Shown here piece by piece: positions 1-64,000 of a stretch of 64,000 bases of DNA. The notes beneath the pieces are model-generated. The model was not told where the DNA came from. It was given only the letters and a program-made list of their open reading frames with translations, and ran no database searches. Every line of letters starts with the position of its first letter. Position 1 is the stretch's first letter. The position numbers were made by a program, and so were the translations under genes. Source of the stretch: Patescibacteria group bacterium (GTDB lineage: Bacteria; Patescibacteriota; Gracilibacteria; UM-FILTER-43-11); the NCBI GenBank assembly GCA_018813295.1, contig JAHJBZ010000066.1, positions 11,231-75,230 on the forward strand, in the 5' to 3' direction.

Positions 1-49
1 AGCGCCACCCGCCTAAGGCGGGCTCCACCATAGCGCCACAACAGAAAAC

Positions 50-1504
50 ATGATAAAAGACCTCAAACAACTCAGCCCGGGTTTATATGAAATTCCCAAA
101 ACATACAAAAAAGGTATGCTCGTACCTGCACGTATTTTTGCATCTCCGGAGTTATTGGAAAAAATGGACGAAGGTGTTTTTGATCAGGTGACAAATATCG
201 CCACGTTACCAGGAATCGTAGAAGCTGCTTACTGTATGCCGGATGGCCATTGGGGTTATGGATTTCCAATCGGAGGAGTGGCTGCATTCGATCCGGACAA
301 TGACGGAATTATTTCCCCCGGTGGAATTGGTTTTGACATTAATTGCGGCATGCGACTTATTACGACCAATTTGACTGAAGATGATGTAAAACCAAGACTG
401 CATGATTTAATAGACCATTTATATGCCAAAATTCCTGTTGGGGCTGGTCAGCATGGTTTTGTACGCTTACATCAAAAGGAATTCAAACAAGTAATTAAAA
501 AGGGGGCAAGATGGTGCCTGGAAAACGGTTATGCAGAGCAGGAGGATCTGGAAAGAACGGAAAATCACGGTGAATTTAATTGGGCAAATCCTGAAAAAGT
601 ATCCGATAGAGCGATTAAAAGAGGTTATAACCAAATCGGAACGTTAGGAAGCGGAAATCACTATCTGGAAATTCAGGTTGTACGTGATGAAAACATTTTT
701 GATAAAAAATTAGCCAATGCTTTTGGGATTTTTGGTCAAAATCAAATTGTAATCATGTTCCATTGTGGCAGTCGCGGTTTTGGACACCAGGTTGCAACGG
801 ACTACCTCCAAAAATTCCTAAAAAAAATGCCGCAATACGGTATTCCTATACTCGATAAAGAGCTAAGCTGTGCACCATTTAACAGCCAGGAGGGTCAGGA
901 CTATTTTGCAGCCATGGCATGCGCCGCAAACATGGCATTTGCAAACAGGCAGGTAATTTTTCATCAAATTAAAAAGTGTTTCAGTAATATTTTTGGTAAA
1001 ACTCCTCAGGATCTTGGAATAGAACAGCTATATGACGTTACCCACAACACAGCCAAACTGGAGGATCATAAAGTTGGCGGTAAAATCAAAAAATTACTCG
1101 TTCATCGCAAAGGTTCCACACGCTCTTTCCCGCCAGGCCATCCGGATCTGGAGGAGGACTTTCAGGAAACAGGTCAACCGGTTATTATTGGAGGATCTAT
1201 GGCAACTGGTTCTTATTTGCTTGTGGGGACGCAGGAAGCAATGGAAAAAAGTTGGGGTTCCACCGCCCACGGCTCAGGCCGTGCCATGTCTCGCCATAAA
1301 GCAAAAAAAATGGTTAGAGGTAGGGATTTACAGCGAGAAATGGAACAGCAGGGAATTTATGTGAAGACATGCTCTTTTTCCGGTTTAGCAGAAGAAGCTG
1401 GCTTTGCCTACAAAAATATTACTGAAGTAGTTGAAGCCTGTGAGCTTTCAGGAATCTCCAAAAAAGTGGTAGCATTTGAACCAATTGGAAATATTAAAGG
1501 TTAA
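50..1504 (+). CDS. rtcB: RNA ligase RtcB (3'-phosphate/5'-hydroxyl RNA-splicing ligase)
   Basis: 484-aa ORF with RtcB signature blocks HWGYGFPIGG, GGIGFDINCGMR, GSGNHYLE, HCGSRGFGH, GGSMATGSY, STAHGSGR. Confidence 0.95.
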   Translation: MIKDLKQLSPGLYEIPKTYKKGMLVPARIFASPELLEKMDEGVFDQVTNIATLPGIVEAAYCMPDGHWGYGFPIGGVAAFDPDNDGIISPGGIGFDINCGMRLITTNLTEDDVKPRLHDLIDHLYAKIPVGAGQHGFVRLHQKEFKQVIKKGARWCLENGYAEQEDLERTENHGEFNWANPEKVSDRAIKRGYNQIGTLGSGNHYLEIQVVRDENIFDKKLANAFGIFGQNQIVIMFHCGSRGFGHQVATDYLQKFLKKMPQYGIPILDKELSCAPFNSQEGQDYFAAMACAANMAFANRQVIFHQIKKCFSNIFGKTPQDLGIEQLYDVTHNTAKLEDHKVGGKIKKLLVHRKGSTRSFPPGHPDLEEDFQETGQPVIIGGSMATGSYLLVGTQEAMEKSWGSTAHGSGRAMSRHKAKKMVRGRDLQREMEQQGIYVKTCSFSGLAEEAGFAYKNITEVVEACELSGISKKVVAFEPIGNIKG

Positions 1505-1508
1505 CTAT

Positions 1509-2012
1509 ATGAGATTATTCATTTCAATCGACGTGCCAAAAGAATTTCATCGTTACTGTCAGCAATTACAGGATCAGTTTCCTGATATTAGAAAAACAAA
1601 TGAGTTTCATTTAACACTTCAATTTTTGGGTGATGATATTGAAGATGCTGAACCAATTATTGAAACACTAAAAACCATAAAATTCGAACAATTTGAATTA
1701 GAAATGGGTGATGCGCTCCCCTTCCCCAATCCATTTCAACCACGAGGAATTTGGATTGAATGCAAAAAAACTGACGCTCTCGAAAAATTAGCAAATGACA
1801 TACGAGAAGCCTTAGAACCTCTAGGATTTATTCCAGACAAACCTTTTAAAGCGCATATAACTTTAGGCCGATTTAGAAAGCCACCGCATAAAAAACCTGA
1901 AAAAATTGAAGGCGAACAGCACAAATTCACAGTCAATCACTTCAATTTAATGGAAAGCATGCTCAGTCCAATCGGACCGAAATACAAAAGAATAATAAAA
2001 ATAAATTATTAA
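1509..2012 (+). CDS. thpR: 2H-phosphoesterase family RNA 2',3'-cyclic phosphodiesterase / 2'-5' RNA ligase
   Basis: In-frame ATG at 1509, 5 nt after the rtcB stop; the track start at 1476 overlaps rtcB. Two HxTx motifs are present (FHLTLQFLG and AHITLGRF). Confidence 0.85.
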   Translation: MRLFISIDVPKEFHRYCQQLQDQFPDIRKTNEFHLTLQFLGDDIEDAEPIIETLKTIKFEQFELEMGDALPFPNPFQPRGIWIECKKTDALEKLANDIREALEPLGFIPDKPFKAHITLGRFRKPPHKKPEKIEGEQHKFTVNHFNLMESMLSPIGPKYKRIIKINY

Positions 2013-2078
2013 TTTTAGATCAGTGAAATCAAATTCTGCGTAATGAGACAAATCCGAAAAATCTGCGGTTCAGACAAT
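2013..2078. repeat. Truncated copy (right half only) of the TTGTCTGAAC-TIR element family
   Basis: Ends in aatctgcggttcagacaat (2060-2078), the same terminus type as elements at 44139, 58674, 60904 and 62701. Internal words such as gaaatcaaa are shared with the 60904-61416 copy. No matching left terminus was found. Confidence 0.5.
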
Positions 2079-2183
2079 AACCATTTAAAAAAACTGAAAG
2101 AAAAGATACAATGCAAATGTATTTAACATTGAACGTATTATTACGTTTTTATTTTTAATTTTATTTCATAACAATATAAAATC

Positions 2184-4214
2184 ATGAGAAATAAATTTAT
2201 TAAAAGAGTTGCCATTACTCTCACCTTTTTAATGGTGTCAATGCAGCTCACCGCCCTGCCAACTTATGCTCTTGTGGGAGATGCAAGCACTGGCTCTTGT
2301 GCCACAGAAGTGTGTACAACCACTGGTAATACTGCATCCAATGTATCAGGTGCTGGCCAAGCCGAAGAAGTACCTACAGAAGAAATTGAAGGTGAAACTC
2401 AAGGTGAAGTAACTGCAACCTTATATGACAGCCCCGGTGATGACACTGTAACAAGTGCAACCACGATTCCTACCGGAGATTTTTCAGTAGATAGTTTTTT
2501 TGACATAGTTGTCGAAGTAGATTTCGATGAGGAAGTGGATACCGATAATTTAGTTGAGTTAGTTGTCGATGAACTTGAAGTTGCCGATGATGATGAAGGG
2601 GCAGCTATTATCGACGAAGCAATTGATGAACTATTAGAGGAAATTGAAGATATGAGTGACGAAGAAGCAGAAGAGGCTTTAGAAGATCTTGAGGAAGAAA
2701 TTGAAGAAGCAATTGAAGATGCCGAAGAAGAGGCAGGGCAAGGACAGCAAAGCGGAAAAGCACATAGAAAAATCTGGCTGCTGAAAAAATTATTAACCAA
2801 ACTACGTGCTGAATTCCTAAAAGAACATCCGGGAATTGCGAGTATAATTCGCCATGTCACAAATCACCGAGGAATTTATTTAATTCGTTGGGGTAATTTA
2901 GACGGGGGCTGGCCTTGTGCCGGCTATGACCAGGATGAAATTGCTGCAAATTTAGAGGCAGGTGAAACACCATGTGGAGTAGACGTAGTTAACTACGATG
3001 GAATAATTTCTGTGGACAAAGGCACATTAAACGTACGCAAAGAAGTGCTTTTTGAAAATAACGATACCGTAACAAGTTCAAGCGGGTCATCCATTTCATT
3101 TGATTCTGTAATCGCAGGCCATTGGGATGGCTTACTTGTAACATACGTTCCTGCTGCAAACGATGATGGAACACAAGGAGAAGTAAATGTAACAGTTTCT
3201 ATTGGTGATTTAAACGAAACATACACAGGAAGCGAAGTATTTGGGACAAGAGATATAGGCAACGAGCATAAAATTGAAATTAAAAAACTCAGCAATATTT
3301 TAACCGGAGTTTCATCTGACAATATTGGTAAACTTATCCTTGCCAAGTTAAGCGTTTACAACAAAATAAATAATATTCTCGCAAAACTTTATCGCCTGAG
3401 AATGTTAAATGTAGGTGGTGATGCACTTGATGATCTTGAAGATTTAATTGAGGGAATAGAAGATGATAATCTTGATGAAGACAGTGCAGAAGAATTAGAA
3501 GATCTTCTCGATGAATTATATAACGAACTTGATGATGATCTAACAGAAGATGAACTGGATGATATAGTAGATGAATTGGAAAATGATTATGATGATGTGG
3601 ATTCTGCAGCTACAGGCCGTAAATTCGCAGCGGGATTGTTACCATTCAGTGATACTGATGATGACGCATGGTATACAGAATATGTTTCAGCTGTTAAAAA
3701 CAGTGGAATTATAAGTGGATATAAAAATGCTGATGGAAGCTCCACAGGCCAGTACGGACCAGGTAACAATGTTACCGTTGCTGAAATCATAAAAATCGCT
3801 TTAGAAACTACAGGCGAAGGAACCTCAGACAGTACACCAGGCTTAAATGCTGCATGGCATCATTGGGCTAAGGGTTATGTTGCAAGAGCAGAAGAGCTTG
3901 GTCTTGATATTGTAAATGACGACGGTTTAGATTTAGATCGCCCTGCCACCCGCGGGGAAGTTGTCAGAATAATGTTAGAAGTTCTTGGTATCAGTCCAGA
4001 CCCAGTTACCGGAACAGACTTCTTTGATGTACTTACTACCCATGAGCATGCCGCATACGTTCAATATGCAAAAGATTTAGGAATAGTTAGCGGTGACGAT
4101 ACTACCGGCGCTTTTAGGCCAGATGATTCAATAAACCGTGCTGAAGCTGCAAAAATAGCTAACCTAATTCTAAGTGTAGTACTAGGCGGCTATGATAGCT
4201 TCTTCGACATCTAA
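2184..4214 (+). CDS. Secreted acidic surface protein with C-terminal SLH (S-layer homology)-like modules
   Basis: Signal-peptide-like N-terminus (VAITLTFLMVSMQLTALPTYA). Two long D/E-rich low-complexity tracts. Three C-terminal SLH-like repeats (FSDTDDDAWYTEYV.., WAKGYVARAEELG.., HAAYVQYAKDLGIVSG..). Confidence 0.7.
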   Translation: MRNKFIKRVAITLTFLMVSMQLTALPTYALVGDASTGSCATEVCTTTGNTASNVSGAGQAEEVPTEEIEGETQGEVTATLYDSPGDDTVTSATTIPTGDFSVDSFFDIVVEVDFDEEVDTDNLVELVVDELEVADDDEGAAIIDEAIDELLEEIEDMSDEEAEEALEDLEEEIEEAIEDAEEEAGQGQQSGKAHRKIWLLKKLLTKLRAEFLKEHPGIASIIRHVTNHRGIYLIRWGNLDGGWPCAGYDQDEIAANLEAGETPCGVDVVNYDGIISVDKGTLNVRKEVLFENNDTVTSSSGSSISFDSVIAGHWDGLLVTYVPAANDDGTQGEVNVTVSIGDLNETYTGSEVFGTRDIGNEHKIEIKKLSNILTGVSSDNIGKLILAKLSVYNKINNILAKLYRLRMLNVGGDALDDLEDLIEGIEDDNLDEDSAEELEDLLDELYNELDDDLTEDELDDIVDELENDYDDVDSAATGRKFAAGLLPFSDTDDDAWYTEYVSAVKNSGIISGYKNADGSSTGQYGPGNNVTVAEIIKIALETTGEGTSDSTPGLNAAWHHWAKGYVARAEELGLDIVNDDGLDLDRPATRGEVVRIMLEVLGISPDPVTGTDFFDVLTTHEHAAYVQYAKDLGIVSGDDTTGAFRPDDSINRAEAAKIANLILSVVLGGYDSFFDI

Positions 4215-4230
4215 AACAATCTAATCACTA

Positions 4231-4270
4231 AAACCCCGTGTCTGGATCGTCTAGATACGGGGTTTTTGTT
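4231..4270 (+). terminator. Rho-independent terminator after the SLH protein gene
   Basis: aaaccccgtgtctgga / tctagatacggggttt stem followed by tttttgtt. The two non-Watson-Crick positions are G.U on the + strand. Confidence 0.75.
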
Positions 4271-4391
4271 ATGCAACGTAAAGACTAAAGGGTATATAAC
4301 TTAAGGAAAAAGACCCTTAAGCCCTTTAGTAATTAGCCCTTCAGTTTATAAGTTATCTGTTGTATCGTTATGTCGTCATATCGTTTATTAT

Positions 4392-8912: not shown

Positions 8913-8990
8913 AATGATTATTTGAGTACTCGTAGCAAGTCCCGCTAAGCGGGACGCAGCGAGAGGATATTTGTTTTTGTGTAAAAAAGT
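8913..8990. repeat. TIR-less remnant of the MITE-like element core
   Basis: atgattattt...ctcgtagcaagtcccgctaagcgggacgcagcgagaggatatttgttt is colinear with the core of the 58674-58830 element (atgattattt...ctgtagagacgtcccgcttagcgggacgtctctacgatatttgttt). Confidence 0.55.
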
Positions 8991-9202: not shown

Positions 9203-9325
9203 CTATTTCCTCTTTTTGGCCTTTGTCTTTTTTGTGGCTTTTTTAACCACTTTTTTTGTGGCTTTTTTAACCACTTTTTTTGCAGGTTTTTTAGCTGCTT
9301 TTTTTGTTGTTTTTTTCACTGGCAT
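9203..9325 (-). CDS. Unannotated 40-aa Lys-rich basic peptide (MPVKKTTKKAAKKPAKKVVKKATKKVVKKATKKTKAKKRK)
   Basis: Hand translation gives ATG at 9325 and TAG at 9205-9203. It contains a 24-nt tandem duplication (ccactttttttgtggcttttttaa x2 on the + strand) encoding KKVVKKAT twice. The composition is histone H1/Hc-like. Confidence 0.5.
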   Translation of the reverse strand: MPVKKTTKKAAKKPAKKVVKKATKKVVKKATKKTKAKKRK

Positions 9326-9390
9326 AAGTGTAAAAAATTAAGTAATAAATTATTTTAATTATCATTGATTTATATAAAAAAGCAATAGTA

Positions 9391-12959: not shown

Positions 12960-13084
12960 AATATTAATTTTTAATTTTTAATTCGAAATTTTTAATCAAT
13001 TTTCATTGTAATAATGTTTAAATTTTTAAAACATTAGAAATTCAGACATTCAATAAAAATTAAAAACTAAAAATTAAAAATTAA

Positions 13085-13894: not shown

Positions 13895-14014
13895 AAGCTA
13901 AACAACAAAAACATTTAGAATTTCGTATTTCAGATTTCGCATTCAAATGCAAAATGCGAATTCAGAAATGCAAAATATTAAGGTTTGTTTTTGTTTTTGT
14001 TTTTATAATAAAGG

Positions 14015-15042: not shown

Positions 15043-15077
15043 GGCACGAGGCACTAGGCACCAGGCACGAGGCACAA
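15043..15077. repeat. Degenerate heptamer tandem array (ggcacNa x5)
   Basis: ggcacga ggcacta ggcacca ggcacga ggcacaa, located between the holB start and tRNA-Leu. Confidence 0.9.
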
Positions 15078-15783: not shown

Positions 15784-15910
15784 TTACAAAATTAAAAATT
15801 CAAGATTACAAAATTAACTAGCATTTCATTTTTTATACACTAAAATAATCTTGTAATTTTCAATTTTCTAATCTTGTAATGAAAATTTTATTTCATAAAA
15901 TTTTAAAAAA

Positions 15911-20740: not shown

Positions 20741-20770
20741 GGACCTACCCCGCTTAGCGGGGGACCTACC
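20741..20770 (-). terminator. GC-rich hairpin between the ATP-grasp fusion gene and the paralog array
   Basis: ccccgc-tta-gcgggg stem-loop (20748-20762) bracketed by the direct repeat ggacctacc. No U-tract follows, so terminator function is uncertain. Confidence 0.35.
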
Positions 20771-20776
20771 ATTGGA

Positions 20777-23134: not shown

Positions 23135-23143
23135 ATAATTTAA

Positions 23144-23206
23144 TTTTCAATTTACAATTTACAATTTTCAAAAGTTTGGAAATTTAAAATTTAAAATTGT
23201 AAATTT
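23144..23206. repeat. Mirror array of degenerate heptamers
   Basis: ttttcaa tttacaa tttacaa ttttcaa ... tttaaaa tttaaaa ttgtaaa, located between the 7TM gene and the ATP-grasp fusion gene. Confidence 0.85.
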
Positions 23207-23212
23207 AGTTAT

Positions 23213-24718: not shown

Positions 24719-24794
24719 AATATTTGATTAGTATTAAGTTTTAAGTCTTAAGGACTAAGCTAGCTTACAGCTTATGACTTAAGACTTATGACTC

Positions 24795-25697: not shown

Positions 25698-25891
25698 TTT
25701 TGGAGGGGTTAATATGAGGGAATCCCGCTAGGGGGGATTCCGAAGCTGACAGGCGACGAACCAGGGCATCCGCCGCGGCGGACTGCTCCGTCGAAATTCT
25801 CCATCATTCTACCAAAAATCGGGCAATAAAAAAACCATCAATAAAAACTCAATTTGACAAAAAAACTCCACAAATCAACAATTAGCTCTAA

Positions 25892-26320: not shown

Positions 26321-26455
26321 ATAAAAAGGTCCCGCCTGTGCCCCTCCGATAGGAATTGATTGAAATTGATAATCTATTTCTATCTATTTCAATCGGGATG
26401 GCCCAGGAAGGACAATCAGGGGGCGCCTGCCTGCCGGTAGGCAGGAGGCGAGGGG

Positions 26456-27022: not shown

Positions 27023-27087
27023 AATCCTTTAATTAAGCAATATTATTAAATCAATTTAGGGCATGTTTGTAAATTGGAATTTAGAGT

Positions 27088-27115
27088 TTGTAAATTGTAA
27101 ATTGTAAATTGTAAA
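27088..27115. repeat. Perfect heptamer tandem repeat (ttgtaaa x4)
   Basis: ttgtaaattgtaaattgtaaattgtaaa in the cobO/nrdJ divergent spacer, with an extra copy at 27067-27073. Confidence 0.95.
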
Positions 27116-27161
27116 TTTGCGTTTATTAAAGCCAGAATCCAGCCACAACAATTCACAAAAA

Positions 27162-27209: not shown

Positions 27210-27397
27210 ATCGTCAAGAACATTTGTTTGACTTCACCCCTCCATTTTTCTAAATTGAAGTACGCATTCAAAAACAAAAAACAGGGATTGCCTCACCCGC
27301 TTTTTTAAAGCCCTCCATATTTCTCACTCCGAGGGAATATAAATAGGTTGAGCTATATCTTTGTGCTCATTACACCCCTAACCAAAACAATTAAAAA

Positions 27398-30789: not shown

Positions 30790-30854
30790 TGATATATTTG
30801 TAAAGATTCAGGACTCAGCTGTTTCCTGTGTCCTGAATCCTGTATCCTTATGAT

Positions 30855-31619: not shown

Positions 31620-31620
31620 C

Positions 31621-31664
31621 TTAATCCTTAAGACTTAATCCTTAAGACTTAATCCTTAAGACTT
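31621..31664. repeat. 14-bp tandem repeat (ttaatccttaagac x3) abutting a start codon
   Basis: Three perfect copies end 2 nt before ATG 31665. The same word family occurs at 24740-24794 and 39373-39400. Confidence 0.95.
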
Positions 31665-33156: not shown

Positions 33157-33236
33157 ACGAATAGTAGCTCGTATTGTAGTCCACTATTCGAGCCACAACT
33201 TGAGCCACCATTCGAGCCATCCGCCGCAGGCGGGGA
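33157..33236. repeat. Dispersed 12-mer mirror-repeat spacer (cgaatagtagct / gagccacaa family)
   Basis: acgaatagtagctcgtattgtagtccactattcgagccacaacttgagccaccattcgagccatccgccgcaggcgg. It is related to 47382-47476 and 54523-54568. Confidence 0.85.
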
Positions 33237-33238
33237 TC

Positions 33239-35761: not shown

Positions 35762-35844
35762 TTTCTGCCTACGGCGGAGACCTAATTGGTGACCTAATAG
35801 GTGTACACCAATAAGGCCACCAATTAGGCCACCCATTAGAAATT
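35762..35844. repeat. 12-mer mirror-repeat leader (gacctaattggt / accaattaggcc)
   Basis: gacctaattggt gacctaataggt gt-ac accaataaggcc accaattaggcc acccattag, ending 6 nt before ATG 35845. Confidence 0.85.
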
Positions 35845-37476: not shown

Positions 37477-37564
37477 TGGATAAACTAATTGTAGGACTAA
37501 TGGTCGGACTAATCGATAAGTTCATCAATAGTACATCAATTAGTCCACCAATAAGTCCCCCAAT
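37477..37564. repeat. 12-mer mirror-repeat leader (ggactaatggtc / tcaattagtcca)
   Basis: aaactaattgta ggactaatggtc ggactaatcgat ... atcaatagtaca tcaattagtcca ccaataagtccc, ending directly before ATG 37565. Confidence 0.85.
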
Positions 37565-40579: not shown

Positions 40580-40854
40580 TTTCTTAAAAATTAATAATTA
40601 AATGTCTTCTTGCTGTGAATTGGCAAGAAAAAGACATCCTGCCAAACGTGGAGGGTATTTTATTACATATTTTTAACCTTGTCAACCCTATTTTAAACAA
40701 TTTTAATTAAATTTGTTAAATCCCCTTTTTCCCGCTAAACTATCTACCAGACGCATAATAAGATTATTTCGACTATTAAGACTATTACGACTATTAGGAA
40801 ATCCTAAAAGTCCTAAAAGTCGTAAAATTCTTAAAAGTCCTAACTAAAATACCA

Positions 40855-42768: not shown

Positions 42769-42807
42769 TCCATACGATCCTCTATTCGATCTTCAATTCG
42801 ATCCTCA

Positions 42808-43470
42808 ATGCGAAATATTATGAAAAAACAAATAATCCCAAAAAGAATCGACGTAAGACATTTTAGAGTAGCAATTTTTGGGTCTGCCCGAATCAAACGT
42901 AATGATCCACGTTACAAACTAATACACACTCTAGCTAAAATGATTGCCAGAGATGGAATAGATGTGGTAACTGGCGGTGGCTACGGATTAATGGAAGCAG
43001 CAAATAAAGGGCATAGGGAAGGGCAAAAAAGGGGTGGAAAAGTTCAATCATTTGGCTTAAATATTAAACTGCCAAAAGAGCAAAAAGCCAATAAGCATTT
43101 GGACATTAAAAAAGAATTTGGGCGCTTCTCAGACCGCTTGGATTATTTTATGCACCTTTCAAATGCAGTAGTAGTTGCACCTGGAGGAATAGGCACACTA
43201 CTGGAATTCCTGTATACCTGGCAGCTTATTCAGGTTGGGCATATTTGCAATATCCCGATCATTCTTTTGGGCAAAATGTGGCCGGATTTCATTAAGTGGA
43301 TAGAAAAATGGCCACTAAAGAAGAAACTAATTGATATTGAGGACATGCATCCTATTTTTCTAGCTGATAATTGTAAAGAAGCGATAAAAATCATTAGAAA
43401 GGCGCATAAAGACTTTATAGACCGCGGACCGGATTATTGCTGGAATTACAAAAAATATAAAATTGATTAA
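42808..43470 (+). CDS. LOG-family (TIGR00730-type) nucleotide-binding protein
   Basis: FGSARI...VVTGGGYGLMEAANKG...APGGIGTLLEF, i.e. the GGGxGxM and PGGxGTxxE motifs. Confidence 0.85.
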   Translation: MRNIMKKQIIPKRIDVRHFRVAIFGSARIKRNDPRYKLIHTLAKMIARDGIDVVTGGGYGLMEAANKGHREGQKRGGKVQSFGLNIKLPKEQKANKHLDIKKEFGRFSDRLDYFMHLSNAVVVAPGGIGTLLEFLYTWQLIQVGHICNIPIILLGKMWPDFIKWIEKWPLKKKLIDIEDMHPIFLADNCKEAIKIIRKAHKDFIDRGPDYCWNYKKYKID

Positions 43471-43818: not shown

Positions 43819-44138
43819 TGACAGACGAGGGATATAAAAAGATTTTTGTCGGATTATCTGCATTAGCTATTACTTTATTTGGCATTATTGTGACAAGCTT
43901 ATTTTTTGATGTAGAATTTGATGAAAAAAACCTTTGGATAGGAGGAATAATTGTTTTCCTTTCGGTTTTTCTTTTTTATACAACACCAATTTACGGGAAA
44001 ATCATCACGCTTATCGTCTCAATTGGTGCAATTTCCTACTTTTTATCTCAAACAACCGGCTTAGCTATTCATTGGAGTCTAGGGATAGCGCTTAGTTTTA
44101 TGGGAATAGTCAGCTTCGGCCTAATGGTTTTGGAATAA
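43818..44138 (+). CDS. Small membrane protein, translationally coupled to the preceding gene
   Basis: 106 aa, three or four TM helices. TAATG stop/start overlap. Confidence 0.6.
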   Translation: MTDEGYKKIFVGLSALAITLFGIIVTSLFFDVEFDEKNLWIGGIIVFLSVFLFYTTPIYGKIITLIVSIGAISYFLSQTTGLAIHWSLGIALSFMGIVSFGLMVLE

Positions 44139-44282
44139 TTGTCTGAACTGTGATTTATGTGATTGAAATGATTTTTTTGATTTGTATTTTCGTAGAGACG
44201 CATTGCAATGCGTCTCTACGAATGTTTTATATATAAAAATCATATCCATCACTGTAATCATGAGAAATCACAGTTCAGACAA
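44139..44282. mobile_element. MITE-like element, copy A (144 bp)
   Basis: Termini are ttgtctgaactgtgatt (44139-44155) and aatcacagttcagacaa (44266-44282), a perfect 17-bp TIR. The central hairpin is cgtagagacgcattgcaatgcgtctctacg. It starts directly after a TAA stop. Confidence 0.8.
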
Positions 44283-44290
44283 TAAACAAA

Positions 44291-44323
44291 AAACCCCCGT
44301 ATCAATGATACGAGGGGCTTTTG
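44291..44323 (+). terminator. Rho-independent terminator
   Basis: cccccgtatc-aat-gatacgagggg stem with one bulge, followed by ctttt. Confidence 0.6.
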
Positions 44324-44329
44324 TCTGGC

Positions 44330-44800
44330 TCCGATAGAGTGTGAATCGTACGACACATTTACAACGTATCGAGAATCACTCAGAACCAAACAATTTTAGG
44401 TGACTAGCCAAAAATGAAATCCAGACTGCACTTTGGTTTTTGTTTTCGTCCGTCCAAGACGTGTTCTTGGGCGTTATCTTTTTATTTTTATTTTTGGTAA
44501 AATAGACAACAGAACATAAGGGGGTTAAGCTCTCGCTAGTCAGGCAGAGCTACATCGTAAAGCCTAGAGAGGATTAGGCGAGAAGTGAAAAAAGTTTTAT
44601 TTTTATTTTTGTTTTTTACTTCTTACCTACGTAATCTTCTCAGGGCTTTACCTATTGGTAAGTTTATAATGTAAAGGATCAAGGGAGAGTAACTATCCTG
44701 GGCCTGACCGGATCTTTTATTATGATTTTTGTCCGCGGCCCAGAATGTTAATTTTTGTGATTTTTGTTTCGTTTCCGAAGCGGTGAAATCAAAGCATTAT
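44330..44800 (+). ncRNA. Candidate structured RNA of unknown class (strand tentative)
   Basis: Lies in an ORF-free gap between convergent gene ends. It has a long hairpin aaagcc-tagagaggatta-ggcgagaag / cttcttacc-tacg-taatcttctc-a-gggcttt (44559-44650). Two hairpin loops share TTTTTATTTTTATTTTT. A further hairpin ctgggcc...ggcccag spans 44697-44743. G.U pairs slightly favour the + strand. Confidence 0.3.
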
Positions 44801-44994
44801 ATCAAGTAGAAAAATATATGCAAGTTTTTTATATTTACAAAAATATAATTTCATTTTAAAAAAACATATACCCAAAACAGGAATGGCTTTAATAAGGCAC
44901 ATAATTTTTCAATTCAGATTTTCCAATTTTCATTAAAATGATCAAATACTAATCAAGTGAAAAATGATAAATGAAAAATGAAAAATGAAAATTG

Positions 44995-46233
44995 TTACTG
45001 CGCTTGCTCTTGAAGTTCCTTTAGAATTTCAATCATTTCTTCGTACTCAGCACAACGAAATTGACACCCATTTTCTTCATTAAAATACCATCTTCCAATA
45101 CAATCAGGAAAACCCGGACGCGGACCTATTGAAAGCGGTGTTAGTAGATTATATACACAACATTCGTCTTTTTCCTCACTTGTCTCGAAATCCTCACAAT
45201 ACTCACTTATAGAATCACCTTCACCTTCCCCCTCTCCTCCAAAATACTCCTCTAATTCCTCTTCTGTATAGCAATGAAATACACATAATCTTATTACATT
45301 ATCAAACTGCCATTCGCCAATGCACCCTGTTTCAACACCAACATTCTGCTGTGTGCAACAAGTATTACGCACTTCTTGAGATCCAATGCTGCAATCAGCT
45401 TCTTCATCTTCACCTTCATCTTCCTCTTCCGGTTCTTGTTCCTCTTCTTCCTTTTCGTTCTCACATCGATACTCACATAACCTACTTGAGTTATTAAACA
45501 CCCAATGACCATAACCACTGCAATAAGGAACCTGTACGCCTTCATTTGCTCTTTCACAGCAATAATTTCGAATAGCTTGAGATCCGACACTGCAATCCCC
45601 GCCTGTTTCTTCTTCCTCTTCACCTTCTTCACCTTCCCCCTCCCCCTCTCCTTCACCTTCACCCTCATCTACTTCCTCTGGTTCAAAACCATCCCAATTT
45701 TCCGTATCCCAGACAACCACATCATCCCCACCGCTAATTGATGCCTCTCCACCTCCAAAGCTTATTTCATCTACAGAATTAGTATCAATCAAAAAGGAAT
45801 CATCATTTCCAATTTCATCGCCATTAACTACTATACTCGACCCATTTGATAACTGAATATCGAGCAGAACCCCCTCAGGAACAGTAATTGTACCGCTTAA
45901 ACCCAGCCATTCATCAGATAAACTAAATCTAGCCCCGCCATTATCTGTGCTAAAAAAACGAATTTTACTGATTCCATCCTCATCTCCTTCTATATCAACC
46001 GTAATTTTATCGGTTTTAGCGGTAACAATTTTTAAATTAGATCTATCAACGTTTTCCAAAACAAAAACACCTTCCTGTACTTCAAATGATTGATGAAAGC
46101 CAGCCTGAGTAGTAAAAAGTTTTACATAAGCAGCGCCTAATAAGAGAACAATAATGGCAAGGGCTGCCAGATAATATTTAGTCATAGGATTTTTGTTATT
46201 TTCCAAAAGCATTCTAACATCCCAAACCCGCAT
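44995..46233 (-). CDS. Membrane-anchored surface protein with three copies of a novel 6-Cys module
   Basis: 412 aa with an N-terminal TM anchor and a beta-rich domain. E/G-rich linkers (EGEGEGEGEGE) separate three C-x(9-13)-CC-x(10-17)-C-x(3,4)-W-x-F-x(5-7)-C-x3-C modules. Confidence 0.7.
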   Translation of the reverse strand: MRVWDVRMLLENNKNPMTKYYLAALAIIVLLLGAAYVKLFTTQAGFHQSFEVQEGVFVLENVDRSNLKIVTAKTDKITVDIEGDEDGISKIRFFSTDNGGARFSLSDEWLGLSGTITVPEGVLLDIQLSNGSSIVVNGDEIGNDDSFLIDTNSVDEISFGGGEASISGGDDVVVWDTENWDGFEPEEVDEGEGEGEGEGEGEEGEEEEETGGDCSVGSQAIRNYCCERANEGVQVPYCSGYGHWVFNNSSRLCEYRCENEKEEEEQEPEEEDEGEDEEADCSIGSQEVRNTCCTQQNVGVETGCIGEWQFDNVIRLCVFHCYTEEELEEYFGGEGEGEGDSISEYCEDFETSEEKDECCVYNLLTPLSIGPRPGFPDCIGRWYFNEENGCQFRCAEYEEMIEILKELQEQAQ

Positions 46234-47381: not shown

Positions 47382-47476
47382 ACGAATAGTAGCTCGAATA
47401 GTAGCTCAAGTTGTGGCTCGAATGGTGGACCACAATACGAGCAACTATCCGAGCCACAATACGAGCCACCATCCGA
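47382..47476. repeat. Dispersed 12-mer mirror-repeat spacer (cgaatagtagct / cacaatacgagc family)
   Basis: cgaatagtagct cgaatagtagct caagttgtggct cgaatggtggac | cacaatacgagc aactatccgagc cacaatacgagc caccatccgata. The halves are about 70% reverse-complementary. Confidence 0.9.
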
Positions 47477-54522: not shown

Positions 54523-54568
54523 ATCCGAATAGTGGTCCGCCGCGGCGGAAGCCACAATCCGAGCCACA

Positions 54569-57983: not shown

Positions 57984-58006
57984 TGCAAATTGAATTAACT
58001 ACTAAA

Positions 58007-58038
58007 GCCCCATCCCGCTAAGCGGGGTGGGGCTTTTT
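58007..58038 (+). terminator. Rho-independent terminator after pilin 1
   Basis: gccccatcccgc-taa-gcggggtggggc followed by ttttt. The one wobble is U.G on the + strand. Confidence 0.8.
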
Positions 58039-58104
58039 GCTATATAAATTTTGATTTATTTCACTTAAATGATAGACTTTACAAGAACTACAATCAAAAA
58101 ATTC

Positions 58105-58671: not shown

Positions 58672-58673
58672 AA

Positions 58674-58830
58674 TTGTCTGAACTGTGATTCTCTTGATTA
58701 AATGATTTCTATGATTATTTAAACGGTTTTTCTGTAGAGACGTCCCGCTTAGCGGGACGTCTCTACGATATTTGTTTATATAAAAAATCATGACCATCAG
58801 TACAATCATCAATAATCACAGTTCAGGCAA
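58674..58830. mobile_element. MITE-like element, copy B (157 bp)
   Basis: Termini are ttgtctgaactgtgatt (58674-58690) and aatcacagttcaggcaa (58814-58830), with one mismatch. The central hairpin gtagagacgtcccgcttagcgggacgtctctac is at 58734-58766. It fills the gap between the convergent pilin 2 and recG ends, abutting the recG stop. Confidence 0.8.
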
Positions 58831-60903: not shown

Positions 60904-61416
60904 ATTGTCTGAACCACTGATTACGCAGATTAAAAGATTACGCTGATTGTATTTTTATACTATTAGCCACTCTTTTAAACTGCAAACTCCTTGATCCAAA
61001 ATTAATAAGTAATCCTGTTTCTAAATTATAGGCTTCAAGATAATTTATCGCCTGGGCCAAATGAACATCTTCTATCTCTGTAATTGCTTTTAGCTCCACC
61101 ATAATACAGCCTTCTATCAGAAAATCCACACGTCTCGTTCCTACGGTATAGCCACGATAACAAATACTCATTTCATGCTCACGTGAATAGCTCAGACCAT
61201 ACTCAGTAAATTCTAATGCTAACGCCCTTTGATAAACTACCTCCTGAAACCCATTCCCAAGATCAGAGTGCACTTTCATAGCAGCACCTATTATTTTCTT
61301 TGTTATATCTGAATATTTATATCGTTGTTTATTCATAATATCCATTTATTAACTATTTAATTAGTAATTTAATCTGAGAAATCAAAAAAATCAGTGTAAT
61401 CAGTGGTTCAGACAAT
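60904..61416. mobile_element. TIR-bounded 513-bp element carrying a GxxExxY gene
   Basis: Perfect 21-bp terminal inverted repeat attgtctgaaccactgattac (60904-60924) / gtaatcagtggttcagacaat (61396-61416). The terminus has the same TTGTCTGAAC...GATT type as the short elements. The left end touches the recG start codon. Confidence 0.75.
60938..61345 (-). CDS. GxxExxY family protein (PD-(D/E)XK nuclease fold)
   Basis: 135 aa. Signature GNGFQEVVYQRAL (GxxExxY) and RVDFLIEGCIMVELK (D...E.K-type nuclease core). Confidence 0.85.
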   Translation of the reverse strand: MDIMNKQRYKYSDITKKIIGAAMKVHSDLGNGFQEVVYQRALALEFTEYGLSYSREHEMSICYRGYTVGTRRVDFLIEGCIMVELKAITEIEDVHLAQAINYLEAYNLETGLLINFGSRSLQFKRVANSIKIQSA

Positions 61417-62579: not shown

Positions 62580-62674
62580 ACAGAAGATGCCGCTGCAACA
62601 GGTGATGAAGTGGAATCAGCTGATTTCTTAATAGCAGATGCTGAAAGATAAAAAAGCAAACACAAAAGCAAAAA

Positions 62675-62700
62675 AGAGGCTGCCACCGGCAGCTCTTTTT
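62675..62700 (+). terminator. Rho-independent terminator
   Basis: agaggctgcc-acc-ggcagctct stem with one bulge, followed by tttttt. Confidence 0.7.
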
Positions 62701-62849
62701 TTGTCTGAACTATGATTTTTTATGATTAAATGATGAGCATGATCGTTATAAACCAAAAATTACAGCAAAACGAAAATACCGTGATACAAATCATAAAAAT
62801 CATTTAATCACATAAATCATAGTTCAGACCACTATCACAGTTCAGACAA
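62701..62849. mobile_element. MITE-like element, copy D (149 bp) with duplicated right terminus
   Basis: The left terminus is ttgtctgaactatgatt (62701-62717). There are two right termini, aatcatagttcagac (62815-62829) and atcacagttcagacaa (62834-62849). It abuts the stop codon of the V-ATPase D gene. Confidence 0.75.
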
Positions 62850-63476
62850 TTAAGCAGCCGCCTGAATCTTCGCCTTAACAACCATGGTATTAATAATCGC
62901 ACCGCGTTCCATTTCTCCAAGCTTCATTTGAATAAACTTAATCGTATCCTTTAAATCAGGAATCATGCGGTATTCAAGTGCATTTACACGGCGACGGGTC
63001 TTTTCAAGTTCCTCCGCTAAAGCCTCAGCGGATTTTTCAATTTCAGCCAACTTGATAAGCAGGGGGAAAGTGTCCTGAAAAGATTGCAATGCGATATCTA
63101 ATTCACCGCTGGTTTGCAAAAAACCATAACTTACAACTTCTCCTTCGGTTTCCAGTTTAAAATGAGGAATGCGAACTGACATTACATTTTTGGTTTCAAC
63201 TTTTAGTTCAGTTTTAGCAGTGGAATAAAGAAGTGCACCTTCCAGCATTTCCTCTTCCATCAAAGAATTAGCACGAATGAAGTTTTTAAATGCAGCACCG
63301 AGTTTTTGCTCTACTTCTTCACGAACAGCTTTAGCTTCGCGTATCACTTCCATAAATTTCTGCATCAAACCATCCTGCTTATCTTTAAGCAGTTTATGTC
63401 CACGCTTTGCACTCTTAATCTTCTTCTTAAGAGTTAGCAGAGCCATCCTGGTTGCATTAACATTCAATATCGCCAT
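62850..63476 (-). CDS. ntpD: V-type ATP synthase subunit D
   Basis: 208 aa. N-terminus NATRMALLTLKKKIKSAKRGHKLLKDKQD and C-terminus RRVNALEYRMIPDL are typical of V/A-type subunit D. Confidence 0.9.
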   Translation of the reverse strand: MAILNVNATRMALLTLKKKIKSAKRGHKLLKDKQDGLMQKFMEVIREAKAVREEVEQKLGAAFKNFIRANSLMEEEMLEGALLYSTAKTELKVETKNVMSVRIPHFKLETEGEVVSYGFLQTSGELDIALQSFQDTFPLLIKLAEIEKSAEALAEELEKTRRRVNALEYRMIPDLKDTIKFIQMKLGEMERGAIINTMVVKAKIQAAA

Positions 63477-63553
63477 ATTAATTGATTACAATTGACATTT
63501 GACCATTGACCTTTGACTTCTTTAGTCAATTGTCAAATGTTAAAGGTCAAATG
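63477..63553. repeat. Heptamer mirror-repeat spacer between V-ATPase B and D
   Basis: ttgacat ttgacca ttgacct ttgactt ... gtcaatt gtcaaat .. ggtcaaat. The left and right halves are imperfect reverse complements. Confidence 0.85.
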
Positions 63554-64000
63554 TTATTTCATATATTTCTCAATATGCTCCTCCTTAACACGCTTCAATT
63601 CAGCTTTCGGCAAAATCTTAAGCAGTTCCCAGCCAAGATTTAGAGAATCTTCAATATCACGATCCTCATGCTCACCCTGGCGAATAAATTTATCTTCAAA
63701 AGCTACTGCAAACTTCATATAAGCACGATCGGTTTCATCAAGAGCTGCTTCACCAAGAATAACAGCAAGTTCGCGAACATCGTTACCGCGTGCATAAGAA
63801 GCATAAAGCTGGTTCATAACACCACTATGATCTTCGCGGGTTTTACCTTCACCAATACCTTTATCTTTCAGGCGGGAAAGTGAAGGAAGTACATCAACTG
63901 GCGGATAAATACCCTTACGATGAAGCTCACGACTCATTACAATCTGACCTTCTGTAATATAACCAGTTAAGTCAGGAATTGGGTGGGTAATGTCATCTTC
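63554..64000 (-). CDS. ntpB: V-type ATP synthase subunit B (C-terminal part; gene continues past the window edge)
   Basis: The frame is open to position 64000: [44 protein letters not shown], a hallmark V/A-ATPase B segment. The track Met at 63937 is internal. Confidence 0.9.

Follow-up and report, generated by a model that had tools for sequence, protein, structure and literature searches.

Intergenic heptanucleotide repeats are known from earlier work (Mrazek 2007, as cited in PMC4679880), in which, according to the same source, heptamers are ascribed by way of proposal to the conserved replication machinery. In Xanthomonas, inverted pairs of heptamers occur near stop codons and are depleted between divergent ORFs (PMC4692102), and the density of perfect inverted repeats in phyla of the "candidate phyla radiation" (CPR) is reported to be the highest of all phyla (PMC13155455). 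Heptamer-binding translational regulators have been proposed where Shine-Dalgarno sequences are lacking (MacGregor 2015; PMC4679880), and cold-shock or S1-like single-strand RNA binders have been proposed for the TAACTGA repeats of Beggiatoaceae. Differential mRNA stability within operons by means of stem-loops is available as a concept (PMC4423207, PMC8219983).

We analysed a window of 64,000 nucleotides from the tiny metagenome-assembled genome of a Peregrinibacteria-type member of the Patescibacteria (CPR). This genome is streamlined (90% coding), and no Shine-Dalgarno-like sequence is seen upstream of start codons in the lineage, as read directly from the sequence. A first-pass annotation had noted periodic, often mirrored repeats between the genes of the window and did not recognise them as a described feature; the precedents above do describe such repeats. 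All the arrays it cited are present where it had placed them (TRF, sequence).

Abundance and period of the arrays

Of 6153 intergenic bp, 1316 (21.4%) lie in TRF arrays with a period of at least 5; in coding DNA the count is 881 of 57715 bp (1.5%). In 200 dinucleotide shuffles of the spacers the mean coverage was 135 bp (sd 52, maximum 273; ~2.2%), so that the observed value is about ten-fold higher (z about 22), and 27 of 46 spacers contain arrays, compared with 4.8 in shuffles (maximum 10). Thus the enrichment over both coding and shuffled DNA is confirmed; however, "almost every spacer", as first claimed, is too strong. A per-spacer census (n = 43) gives 26 with an array, 20 with a strong hairpin, 30 with either and 13 with neither, an affected share of ~60-70%. 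GC content is 25% within arrays and 34% in the spacers outside them.

Period 7 dominates, with harmonics at 14 and 21; next in rank are a family of 12-mers and some 9-mers. Self-matches of 4-mers at lags 7, 14 and 21 have z-scores of 15.8, 11.7 and 7.8, and the lag-7 peak is absent from the dinucleotide shuffles. The periods reported earlier (7, 9, 12 and 14) do occur, but they reduce to 7 and its harmonics plus a period of 12 that is specific to the window. Among 59 heptamer arrays there are 41 distinct units, with no common motif found beyond AT-richness; the idea that each locus has its own unit therefore holds for most heptamers but fails for the 12-mers, which recur at six loci, and for TTGTAAA, which is used at 27088 and, on the opposite strand, at 23142. 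Copies had been thought to differ mainly by transitions; we counted 50 transitions and 98 transversions (34% transitions), which is the random expectation. Copies stand head to tail with no spacers between them, which is not the organization of a CRISPR, and we agree with the earlier view that they form no single REP family and lie far above AT-rich chance (shuffles, folds and lag analysis).

Several plus-strand arrays have a single orientation. A perfect TTGTAAA array (x4.3; TRF 27088-27117, 100% matches) lies at 27067..27117, in a divergent spacer upstream of a class II ribonucleotide reductase (RNR) gene, and a perfect 14-mer, CTTAATCCTTAAGA (2 x 7, about x3.2-3.3; TRF 31620-31665, 100% matches), takes up all 45 nt that separate two plus-strand genes at 31620..31664. 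GGCACGA (x4.7, 88% matches; TRF 15043-15075) occupies 15043..15077 in the divergent spacer between tRNA-Leu and a DNA polymerase III delta'-like gene, the true start of which is probably at 14947 (Pfam and start-codon check); no inverted partner of this array was found. TGAAAAA (x4.9, 92% matches by TRF) at 44958..44991 is directly downstream of the stop codon of the minus-strand gene 44995-46233. A TTTTGAA array (x4.6) lies within the CobA/BtuR coding sequence at 26701-26732 (TRF, Pfam).

Mirror symmetry, folding and position relative to genes

We found that 20 of the 42 arrays in the window, about half, have a reverse-complement partner within their own spacer, whereas composition-matched controls gave 5 (reversed only) and 9 (complement only); the other 22 are unmirrored. 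In other loci 37 of 65 arrays are mirrored, and controls over the window and these loci range from 5 to 11. RNAfold z-scores fall below -3 in 20 of 43 spacers and in none of 43 length-matched coding pieces, and folding with DNA parameters agrees. The mirrored halves and long imperfect hairpins of the first description are thereby upheld. The spacer palindromes are long, AT-rich and imperfect, with a median of 33 pairs; complementarity of the arms is 0.71 in register and 0.60 after a shift of one unit, a modest gain.

The heptamers TTAATTT (x4.7) and TAAAAAT (x4.4; TRF, palindrome alignment) fill the spacer 12964..13084 between two minus-strand genes, for an OMP decarboxylase-like and a TPR protein, in a stem (12964-13022 / 13026-13084) of 57 pairs, 47 of them Watson-Crick (z -7.2 for RNA, minus strand; z -3.15 for DNA). 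Between the TPR gene and a holB-like gene, ATTTCGN and AAATGCA, flanked by TTTGTT (x3.5; TRF, palindrome alignment), form 43 pairs (35 Watson-Crick; z -5.8 / -5.5) at 13900..13996. The array TTACAAAATTA.. / ..TAATCTTGTAA at 15784..15879 (period 7-8; 33 pairs, 29 Watson-Crick; z -4.7 / -5.0) begins at the first base past the stop of a CBS-domain gene, with ribosomal protein L25 encoded downstream. A mirrored AATTTAC array, the complement of the TTGTAAA unit (TRF 23142-23207), makes up the whole stop-to-start spacer of two minus-strand genes at 23135..23212, with 0 nt left on either side (35 pairs, 31 Watson-Crick). Further examples are AGTATTA / CTTATGA (x3.3 each by TRF) at 24730..24793 (z -4.6 / -6.4) and a long imperfect hairpin at 26329..26413 with a 10-nt periodic core, AATCTATTTC (x2.4, TRF), inside a GC-rich outer stem (41 pairs, 30 Watson-Crick; z -3.4 / -7.1). 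A short hairpin of CTGAATC / CTGTATC at 30801..30850 (18 pairs, 15 Watson-Crick) just precedes the gene starting at 30855; another hairpin, GC-rich, stands upstream of it, behind the RNR gene, and the spacer has fold z-scores of -7.8 / -8.7. The 9-mers at 40770-40845 had been read as single-orientation, but GACTATTAN (x3) and TCCTAAAAG (x4.7) are mirrored at 40771..40839 (TRF; 29 pairs, 25 Watson-Crick; DNA z -5.7), 15 nt upstream of the start of a transketolase-family gene in a divergent spacer. ATTGACC / GTCAAAT at 63496..63553 (TRF; 22 pairs, 19 Watson-Crick; z -6.0 / -5.1, DNA z -5.1) is intra-operonic, running from the base past the stop of V/A-ATPase subunit B to 19 nt before subunit D (Pfam). 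A weaker case, at 4290..4390, is the imperfect inverted repeat CTAAAGGG.. / ..CCCTTTAG followed by TATCGTCA (x2.8, TRF), in a spacer with z -5.8 / -4.0; it is downstream of a canonical terminator (GC stem and T tract) at 4224-4272.

The hairpins had been placed directly upstream of start codons, as possible replacements for 5' UTR signals. We found instead that the median distance from the upstream stop codon to the stem is 4 nt and that from the stem to the next start 14.5 nt, and that stems are nearer the stop than the start in 27 cases versus 10 (P = 0.005). Hairpins are present in 46 of the 94 spacers with a gene 3' end, against 6 of the 25 divergent ones (P = 0.04). This depletion is modest and varies with the threshold chosen (P = 0.04-0.15); strong hairpins are found in divergent spacers too (window 40771-40839, L083:6320, L090:9771). 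Nor does strand preference favour a 5' UTR role. Among co-directional hairpins (n = 38), the antisense strand is more stable in 24 and the sense strand in 12, with two ties, and the strand-biased G.U mismatches looked for on the earlier suggestion are absent (sense-strand G.U versus A.C, 49 versus 59; P = 0.39). Canonical terminator 4224-4272, in contrast, is sense-favoured in folding. Absence of G.U bias, together with antisense folding at least as good, indicates that the symmetry exists at the level of DNA.

Dispersed 12-mers and the spacers of related genomes

The 12-mer family, CCAC(A/C)AT(T/A)CGAG / CCACCAATTAGG, is found at six loci (33156, 35762, 37477, 42769, 47381 and 54523), all of which conserve a CCAC(A/C)AAT core; arrays extend over 35779-35839, 37472-37565, 42775-42813 and 47383-47476. 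Mirrored units are CGAATAGTAGCT / CCACAATTCGAG in a convergent spacer at 33158..33214 (24 pairs; minus-strand z -5.2); GACCTAATTGGT / CCACCAATTAGG at 35776..35833 (27 pairs, 22 Watson-Crick; z -6.2 / -6.5, DNA z -5.0), between two paralogous genes for 543-aa zinc-ribbon proteins; and GGACTAATGGTC / GTCCACCAATAA at 37488..37564 (29 pairs, 25 Watson-Crick; z -5.0 / -3.9), which runs up to the base before the ATG of a radical SAM gene. At 47394..47476, in a type IV pilus cluster between genes for a PilT-like ATPase and a response regulator (Pfam), CGAATAGTAGCT (x3.4) faces CCACAATACGAG (x3.3) in 33 pairs (25 Watson-Crick; z -4.9 / -5.8), and the same cluster contains a short hairpin, CGAATAGTGG .. 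CCACAATCCG with core CCGCCGCGGCGG, at 54526..54561 (15 pairs). A plus-strand array of CGATCCTCAATT (x2.8, TRF), a member of the family that includes the CCACAATTCGAG units, fills a 39-nt spacer at 42775..42807. With its sequence shared among six loci, this family resembles a dispersed element or a binding motif more closely than the product of independent local slippage. Elements with inverted termini, TTGTCTGAAC...GTTCAGACAA, are also dispersed (44139-44282, 58672-58830 and 62700-62849; 8 matches versus 2.4 expected), with a relative in L003.

The best relative has 76% amino-acid identity, and a metagenome scan yielded no close strain. At orthologous gene boundaries on the sister contig L085, whose proteins are 75-82% identical, the spacers are unalignable, yet long hairpins or arrays are present there again, as anticipated if units change while the architecture is kept. 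Upstream of the radical SAM gene, 37477-37564 corresponds to a perfect, non-periodic hairpin at L085:13922-14004, and L085 also has a related CCACAAC motif. Two paralogous spacers in L087 (98 and 91 nt) differ by one 7-nt unit, TTCAGGC. Six other Patescibacteria loci, Falkowbacteria included, have the same array and hairpin architecture in unrelated sequences (z = 40, 22 and 14 at lags 7, 14 and 21), and a weaker period-7 signal is found in 55 loci of Bacteroidota (Chitinophagaceae/Sphingobacteriaceae, z = 19). The process is therefore not lineage-specific, as had been proposed; a signal across both groups points to conserved replication machinery rather than to a lineage-specific protein.

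Origin and possible functions

We consider it about 50% probable that the heptamers are made by slippage, mirrored by template switching and tolerated, with any function secondary and exerted through the hairpin. Long-motif simple-sequence repeats, mainly heptanucleotide, would arise and turn over in situ by replication slippage, and intrastrand template switching (quasipalindrome correction or inverted duplication) would make the mirror copies and keep the arms matched, so that a slippage step in one arm, copied to the other, would let the palindrome grow in 7-nt steps. Arrays would build up where constraint is least, that is, after stops, ~15 nt before the next start and rarely between divergent genes. 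The perfect arrays, the diversity of heptamer units, the unit step in L087 and the array within CobA/BtuR argue for a recent, in-place origin, and fit the slippage-type process suggested at first. Function, if any, would be carried by the hairpin rather than by its sequence, most plausibly as a hairpin that lacks a U tract, at transcript 3' ends or within operons, with a role in stabilising or processing RNA or in attenuation.

That the arrays persist in roughly half of the spacers, lie next to stops and leave a hairpin at an orthologous boundary could instead reflect selection for function. Useless DNA would be expected to be deleted from so streamlined a genome, which counts against purely neutral arrays. 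It is possible, though less probable, that selection acts first of all on the hairpins as RNA elements (terminators or attenuators lacking U tracts, or 3' stem-loops that serve as exonuclease barriers and give differential mRNA stability within operons, known as selective RNA processing and stabilisation), the periodic arms being just the easiest mutational way to a longer stem. The placement of stems just past stops, their two-fold higher frequency in spacers with a gene 3' end and the radical SAM boundary, which keeps a hairpin despite loss of sequence and periodicity, all favour this explanation, and 63496-63553 is placed where a stability element could set a presumed 3:1 subunit stoichiometry of the V/A-ATPase. 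However, sense-strand G.U is not preferred, antisense strands fold at least equally well, no T/U tract was found after the stems, strong hairpins occur between divergent genes, and 22 of the 42 arrays are unmirrored; moreover, the genome already has ordinary terminators with GC stems and T tracts (4224-4272, 57984-58068 and 62680-62705).

That the units are regulatory sites for a protein with a register of ~7 nt, whether a cold-shock or S1-like protein on RNA or, on DNA, a regulator or nucleoid protein, seems unlikely to us. The period common to the loci, the shared 12-mer core with its L085 relative, and a lack of Shine-Dalgarno sequences like that behind the MacGregor (2015) proposal would fit, but the heptamers have no common motif, orthologous spacers carry completely different units, arrays are nearer stops than starts, and Pfam scans of the window found no candidate binding protein. 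Insertion of small mobile palindromes (REP/BIME-like or MITE-like) is no more probable: the 12-mers and the TTGTCTGAAC...GTTCAGACAA elements are truly dispersed, but heptamer arrays share no sequence across loci and so do not derive from a single copied element, Pfam scans of the window show neither a transposase nor a RAYT-type gene, and perfect tandem copies and unit-step lengths indicate local amplification. Chance in AT-rich, low-complexity spacers, or an assembly artefact in a metagenomic source, is very improbable, as the dinucleotide shuffles refute chance, fold z-scores go far beyond coding controls, an NCBI and a Logan assembly agree with 100% identity over two spacers with hairpins, and the isolate complete genome of Mucilaginibacter sp. 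McL0603 (L045) has the same architecture.

The stop-proximal, divergent-poor placement of the hairpins is the bias reported for Xanthomonas heptamer arrays (PMC4692102). The repeats of the window are an extreme case of a class already reported in bacteria, and not a new kind of element.

Period, composition and extent of the arrays

All of the arrays cited in the first-pass annotation, which had reported degenerate, usually mirrored repeats in almost every intergenic spacer, were located in the window at the sites it named. Arrays identified by TRF with a period of at least 5 cover 1316 of the 6153 intergenic bp (21.4%) in our gene map of the window, against 881 of the 57715 coding bp (1.5%). 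The shuffle control proposed in that annotation gave 135 ± 52 bp (maximum 273) in 200 dinucleotide-preserving shuffles of the spacers, compared with the 1316 bp observed, and array-bearing spacers number 27 of 46, compared with 4.8 (maximum 10) in such shuffles. With a TRF coverage ten-fold over the dinucleotide shuffles, the arrays of the window exceed chance as long-motif SSRs do; where the unit length is not divisible by 3 they also lie preferentially in non-coding DNA, with one exception inside CobA/BtuR (26701-26732). "Almost every spacer" is nevertheless too broad a description: an array is present in 26 of 43 spacers, a strong hairpin in 20 and one or the other in 30, leaving 13 of the 43 with neither.

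Four-mer self-matches within the spacers of the window peak at lags 7, 14 and 21 (z = 15.8, 11.7 and 7.8), with a separate peak at lags 12 and 24 (z = 11.7 and 5.0) and a small one at 9; the coding DNA of the window shows the codon period alone. Of the periods originally listed (7, 9, 12 and 14), 7 is thus dominant, 12 is separate and 9 is small, but 14 (and 21) are harmonics, so that the list reduces to one main period. Among 42 arrays, 14 have period 7, three have period 14 and eight have period 12; the last form a second class, outside the 5-11-nt range of long-motif SSRs.

The proposal that each locus uses its own unit holds to the extent that 41 distinct heptamers occur among 59 arrays from seven loci, but a 12-mer family and TTGTAAA both recur. 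The 12-mer family, CCACAATTCGAG / CCACCAATTAGG and their complements, is found at 33156, 35762, 37477, 42769, 47381 and 54523; its members were assigned by reading the sequences, as the degenerate search pattern had been mis-specified, one base too long. TTGTAAA lies at 27088, with an opposite-strand copy at 23142. Copies were also thought to differ mainly by transitions, which is not the case: transitions make up 34-35% of the differences between neighbouring units, exactly the random expectation. In the window, GC content is lowest in arrays (25%), intermediate in the rest of the spacer (34%) and highest in coding DNA (38%), and the same order is seen in four comparison loci from other genomes (L087, L088, L089 and L090), where coding GC is about 49-59%.

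The exceptional coding array is a perfect heptamer array, TTTTGAA x4.6, within a full-length CDS for the corrinoid adenosyltransferase CobA/BtuR (26701-26732). The protein has 188 aa, compared with the 172 positions of the Pfam profile, and the array encodes ..KFKIQNSKFKI.. on the minus strand; a slippage process would therefore affect genes too when the change in length keeps the reading frame. A 24/12-nt repeat, TTTTTTGTGGCTTTTTTAACCACT, at 9247-9330 encodes on the minus strand a lysine-rich repeat starting MPVKKTTKKAAKKPAKKVVKKATKK, and is probably an uncalled gene for a small histone-like or basic protein rather than spacer DNA.

Hairpin anatomy, position and strand symmetry

RNAfold gave z < -3 for 20 of 43 spacers and for none of 43 length-matched coding pieces, and folds of eight example spacers with DNA parameters were concordant. 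A reverse-complement partner (at least 80% identity over two units) lies within the same spacer for 20 of 42 arrays, compared with five for reversed-only and nine for complement-only controls. The 9-mer pair at 40771-40839, previously listed as single-orientation, is in fact mirrored, with 29 pairs of which 25 are Watson-Crick. A typical affected spacer has 60-130 nt, of which one stem-loop takes up a median of 75%; the median stem has 33 pairs, ~80-88% of them Watson-Crick, and the median loop 9 nt. The pairing score of periodic arms is 0.71 in register and 0.60 after a shift of one unit, a gain in arm complementarity too slight to separate inverted duplication of a whole arm from independent arrays.

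These hairpins had been placed directly upstream of start codons. Instead, 27 of the 38 co-directional hairpins are nearer the stop codon and 10 nearer the start (P = 0.005); their stems begin a median of 4 nt from the upstream stop (20 within 5 nt), and the median gap from the far end of the stem to the next start is 14.5 nt. Of the 94 spacers that include the 3' end of a gene, 46 have a hairpin, as do six of the 25 divergent spacers, a difference that is significant at the chosen threshold (P = 0.04) and not at others (P = 0.07-0.15). Some lie within operons, at 63496-63553 between V/A-ATPase subunits B and D and at 54526-54561 and 47394-47476 in the pilus cluster, and these positions argue against strong termination.

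The strongest rival to an origin by mutation is that selection for RNA hairpins was the primary cause. Such hairpins should favour the transcribed strand, and the terminator at 4224-4272, which is canonical, does so: it has two G.U pairs and no A.C, and folds at -27.0 kcal/mol in the sense and -18.9 kcal/mol in the antisense strand. It fits the behaviour expected of a selected RNA hairpin; the periodic hairpins do not. The strand bias in G.U mismatches suggested as a check did not emerge, with 49 sense G.U against 59 A.C in automatic stems from seven loci (P = 0.39). An excess of sense-strand A.C (24, against eight G.U) in a hand-picked set from the window disappeared with automatic stems over the seven loci. 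Among the 38 co-directional hairpins, the antisense strand is the stabler in 24 and the sense strand in 12, with two ties (P = 0.07). Given that neither mismatches nor stability show a preference for the sense strand, the symmetry of the periodic hairpins looks like a property of the DNA, and single base pairs of the sense transcript are under weak selection at most.

The stems are not followed by a T tract: over the next 8 nt the number of Ts centres on 3, the expectation from composition. Terminators with a GC stem and a T tract stand apart from the periodic hairpins, at 4224-4272, at 57984-58068 and near 62680. A scan for consensus promoters and terminators gave no excess over shuffles and was uninformative. 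At the gathering threshold, Rfam yielded only the two tRNAs in the window, and permissive Rfam scans of 44100-45000 and 25650-27420 returned far-sub-threshold matches resembling miRNA precursors, or nothing.

Other structured elements are present in the window. A dispersed palindromic family of 130-155 bp with termini TTGTCTGAACTGTGATT...AATCACAGTTCAGACAA has full copies at 44139-44282, 58672-58830 and 62700-62849, and partial copies at 60904-60937, 61375-61405 and 2060-2080. Its arms are periodic, with ..TGATT.. about every 9 nt, and a GC-rich central hairpin, GTAGAGACG...CGTCTCTAC, is found in two of the three full copies. All three full copies are in convergent spacers. For the family as a whole there are 8 matches against 2.4 expected, and L003 (7206-7300), from a MAG labelled Gracilibacteria, carries a relative; the elements may be MITE/REP-like or bidirectional terminators. 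Short GC-rich hairpins with cores CCCGCT(A/T)AGCGGG or CCGCCGC(N)GGCGG recur within the AT-rich spacers (8935-8960, 20745-20776, 25720-25745, 58005-58030 and 58735-58765; also 33225-33238 and 54535-54550) and seem to form a small dispersed family of their own, with similar GC-rich motifs in comparison loci (CCCCGCGCTTAAGCGCGGGG in L004, and the 'CCCTGAGCGTAGTCGAAGGG' type in L087 and L088). The stretch 44283-44957, unusually long for a compact genome, has ~670 bp without an Rfam family and, in the ORF-based gene map, without an ORF of at least 60 aa. Within it are a conventional terminator near 44335-44375 and a further long hairpin around 44557-44652, and it could contain a decayed gene or a gene for an RNA. 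Between minus-strand genes (aminotransferase IV, a 142-aa ORF and CobA) lie two GC-rich and strongly structured spacers, 25698-25891 and 26321-26455. Neither contains a heptamer array, the latter having only a 10-nt periodic core, and Rfam gave no match for either even with E <= 0.1; both are candidate structured RNAs specific to the lineage.

Occurrence in other genomes and origin of the arrays

The window has 37% GC, is ~90% coding under the standard genetic code, and carries genes for RtcB, a class II ribonucleotide reductase (RNR), RecG, a type IV pilus cluster, V/A-ATPase subunits, two tRNAs and many hypothetical proteins. Its RNR is nearest to those of MAGs labelled Peregrinibacteria, Gracilibacteria or Peribacteria (best identity 72-76%), homologues of a 543-aa zinc-ribbon protein come from sources named Peribacteraceae, Peregrinibacteria or Patescibacteria, and both JAHJFI010000245.1 (GCA_018824965.1) and a Logan assembly of SRR2544004 match part of the window at 100% identity. 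Judged from these labels and identical contigs, the host is a Peregrinibacteria-type member of the candidate phyla radiation (CPR). Read directly, the window shows no Shine-Dalgarno-like motif upstream of its start codons.

Two paralogues of a ~545-aa protein stand in tandem in the window (34130-35761 and 35845-37476), and such paralogues are found in L083, L087 and L088 as well. They have zinc ribbons of the treble-clef type at one end or at both, and their homologues run to thousands across Patescibacteria. In relatives, four to seven of them are arranged in a row beside a TrwB/VirD4-like ATPase (DUF87, T4SS-DNA_transf, DUF8128) and a TrmB regulator, with a near-identical periodic hairpin between successive paralogues.

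A sister contig (L085) is syntenic with the window at 72-82% protein identity. Comparison of orthologous spacers, as the first-pass annotation had recommended, bore out its expectation: the spacers of the sister contig cannot be aligned with those of the window, yet again contain long periodic hairpins, downstream of RNR, upstream of a 542-aa gene and before RecG. Ahead of the radical SAM gene, the window has a periodic 12-mer hairpin (37488-37564) and the sister contig a perfect, non-periodic 27-bp hairpin (L085 13922-14004), so the hairpin is retained at this boundary while sequence and periodicity are not. Like architecture is found in L083, L087 (Peregrinibacteria CG10), L089 (Patescibacteria) and L090 (Falkowbacteria), and in L004 and L005 (Peribacteria), which combine 60% GC with AT-rich arrays; pooled over L083, L085 and L087-L090, lag 7 has z = 40. 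Four near-identical paralogous spacers of L087 include one of 98 nt and two of 91 nt, the extra sequence being a single TTCAGGC unit, and this difference of one 7-nt unit is an indirect sign of unit-step change in copy number. When metagenomes were scanned for strain-level length variants with 24 nt from the end of the gene at 30855-31619, nothing was found; contigs with the exact protein were all 100% identical to the window, and the nearest homologue of the test protein was 76% identical.

A lineage-specific process had been raised as a possibility, but the architecture extends to another phylum. Among loci recovered by the RNR search, mirrored heptamer hairpins occur in several from Bacteroidota (L045, L013, L015 and L075 among them), with examples at L045:3067-3150 and 4033-4142 and L013:5385-5564; L045 is from the complete genome of Mucilaginibacter sp. 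McL0603 (NZ_CP188251.1) and includes "attagtcattggtcattagtcattagtc...gactaatgaccaatgac". When 55 Bacteroidota loci are pooled, the lag-7 z-score is 19; 11 of these loci are strongly affected, and the phenomenon is two to three times denser in the Patescibacteria loci.

We are fairly confident that the heptamer arrays arose by slippage, because there are perfect arrays, diverse units and a unit-sized length difference between paralogous spacers, and because an array lies in the CobA/BtuR CDS, sequences turn over rapidly and the period is common to distant phyla. Replication slippage would generate heptanucleotide-class SSRs in place; intrastrand template switching would copy one arm onto the other, giving the mirror arrangement, and the palindromes would then lengthen in 7-nt steps. 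We infer mirroring by template switching because it fits both the mirror arrangement and the absence of strand preference. Two further readings take the arrays as protein-binding sites or as mobile elements; chance or artefact is excluded by the shuffles, by independent assemblies and by an isolate genome.

What the hairpins do is less certain. With stems hard against stop codons, ~15 nt of clearance before starts and retention in a streamlined genome, they are either putative boundary elements without a U tract (for 3'-end protection, processing or attenuation) or merely confined to the sole unconstrained bases. It is conceivable, if rather unlikely, that period-7 palindromic arrays are the footprint of a new replication error mode combining 7-nt slippage with intrastrand template switching, unusually fast in Patescibacteria, perhaps for want of hairpin-trimming or palindrome-cleaving nucleases, and that the resulting hairpins, sequence-free and lacking a U tract, were co-opted by these streamlined genomes as a general gene-boundary signal (at transcript 3' ends or for intra-operon stability) replacing canonical terminators.

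If slippage with mirroring is the right reading, about a fifth of the non-coding DNA here comes from a single mutational process with a 7-nt step, and the other Patescibacteria loci sampled suggest that this holds more widely in the group. Why 7 nt is the preferred slippage step, a question standing since the 2007 survey of Mrazek et al., would become testable, as would the use of sequence-free hairpins as gene-boundary signals in lineages without Shine-Dalgarno motifs and often without canonical terminators; culturable Bacteroidota with the same structures (Mucilaginibacter, Chitinophagaceae) offer a tractable experimental system. Rapid unit-step change would make the arrays strain markers for uncultured CPR populations. 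Periodic spacers will also mislead terminator predictors, ncRNA screens (as in the weak matches to miRNA-precursor models) and short-read assembly.

Relation to known repeat systems

CRISPR arrays have direct repeats of ~24-48 nt that alternate with unique spacers about as long as the repeats. The units here are 7-14 nt and directly abutting, in keeping with the earlier view that these are not CRISPR, and no cas domain was found in the window except a generic helicase match in RecG. REPs have one conserved consensus of 20-40 bp in many copies and are linked to the RAYT transposase. Like REP/BIME, the periodic hairpins are intergenic and frequently lie at the 3' ends of genes or within operons, and roles in mRNA stabilisation or termination are proposed. 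No consensus unites the heptamer hairpins; dispersed sequences that resemble REP/BIME-like families are limited to the 12-mer family (six loci) and the TTGTCTGAAC elements, which have conserved termini and three or more copies. No RAYT/TnpA-REP transposase is among the Pfam matches of the window genes. Nor do the heptamer hairpins qualify as MITEs, which have terminal inverted repeats, target-site duplications and several near-identical copies, as their sequences are locus-unique. With intrinsic (Rho-independent) terminators they share a stem-loop just past the stop codon, but their stems are AT-rich rather than GC-rich, are far longer (median 33 pairs), lack a U tract and are not stabler in the sense strand.

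Heptamer repeats called STRR were reportedly described from cyanobacteria by Mazel et al. in 1990. Marine Beggiatoaceae, cyanobacteria and some Bacteroidetes have TAACTGA arrays immediately before start codons; some Bacteroidetes spacers are assemblages of several different heptamer repeats, and the BOGUAY "Maribeggiatoa" genome has only one indirect repeat (MacGregor 2015, PMC4679880). The TAACTGA and STRR repeats, like the arrays here, are tandem heptamers in the spacers of lineages that make little use of Shine-Dalgarno sequences, but there a genome mostly has a single unit, directly repeated and placed a few nt before start codons, whereas those described here have diverse units, are commonly mirrored and lie nearer stop codons.

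The GGGAATC arrays of Xanthomonas, including 70-75 inverted pairs per genome, favour co-directional ORFs, are depleted between divergent ORFs and lie very close to stop codons; from one species to another the arrays change in length but remain single or inverted as before (Rehm et al. 2015, PMC4692102). In both systems two convergent heptamer arrays on opposite strands could form a stem-loop or cruciform, and close convergent pairs and the positional rules (co-directional, stop-proximal, divergent-depleted) are found here too. Xanthomonas differs in having a single G-rich unit genome-wide with G-quadruplex potential (PMC4692102); the 41 distinct units here have no G tracts, and since these dozens of units are AT-rich (arrays 25% GC), G4 or i-motif chemistry cannot apply.

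In a 2026 survey (PMC13155455, in excerpt), Campbellbacteria and Kaiserbacteria top all phyla in the density of perfect inverted repeats, and Uhrbacteria is also high, a ranking consistent with hairpins in Peregrinibacteria, Falkowbacteria and other Patescibacteria loci here; the survey counts perfect inverted repeats, and its excerpted text was found to make no mention of periodic (tandem-repeat) arms. The search found no literature on periodic-arm hairpins in CPR, Peregrinibacteria or Patescibacteria, and a Peribacteria genome paper mentions only short, origin-proximal repeats.

The closest class is that of Mrazek, Guo and Shah (2007), as summarized in PMC4679880 and PMC4692102: long SSRs with head-to-tail motifs of 5-11 nt beyond chance, patchily distributed in phylogeny and mostly intergenic, with heptanucleotides the most abundant class in most genomes and ~7 nt suggested as the length that interacts with the polymerase in slippage. 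The arrays here share the form, the intergenic bias, the patchy distribution and the commonest period, and slippage in steps of ~7 nt is the proposed origin for both. The 2007 survey preceded CPR genomes; arrays here fill ~21% of the spacer DNA of a streamlined, ~90%-coding genome, about half of those in the window are mirror pairs, and a 12-mer family is prominent as well. For the combination of dozens of different AT-rich units, mirroring of about half of the arrays, a parallel 12-mer family and the filling of most stop-to-start spacers in streamlined Patescibacteria, we found no description. Intergenic heptamer repeats and their inverted-pair form were nevertheless already known (PMC4679880, PMC4692102), and the periodic hairpins are not the new genome feature initially suspected, yet they are a clean and very strong signal.
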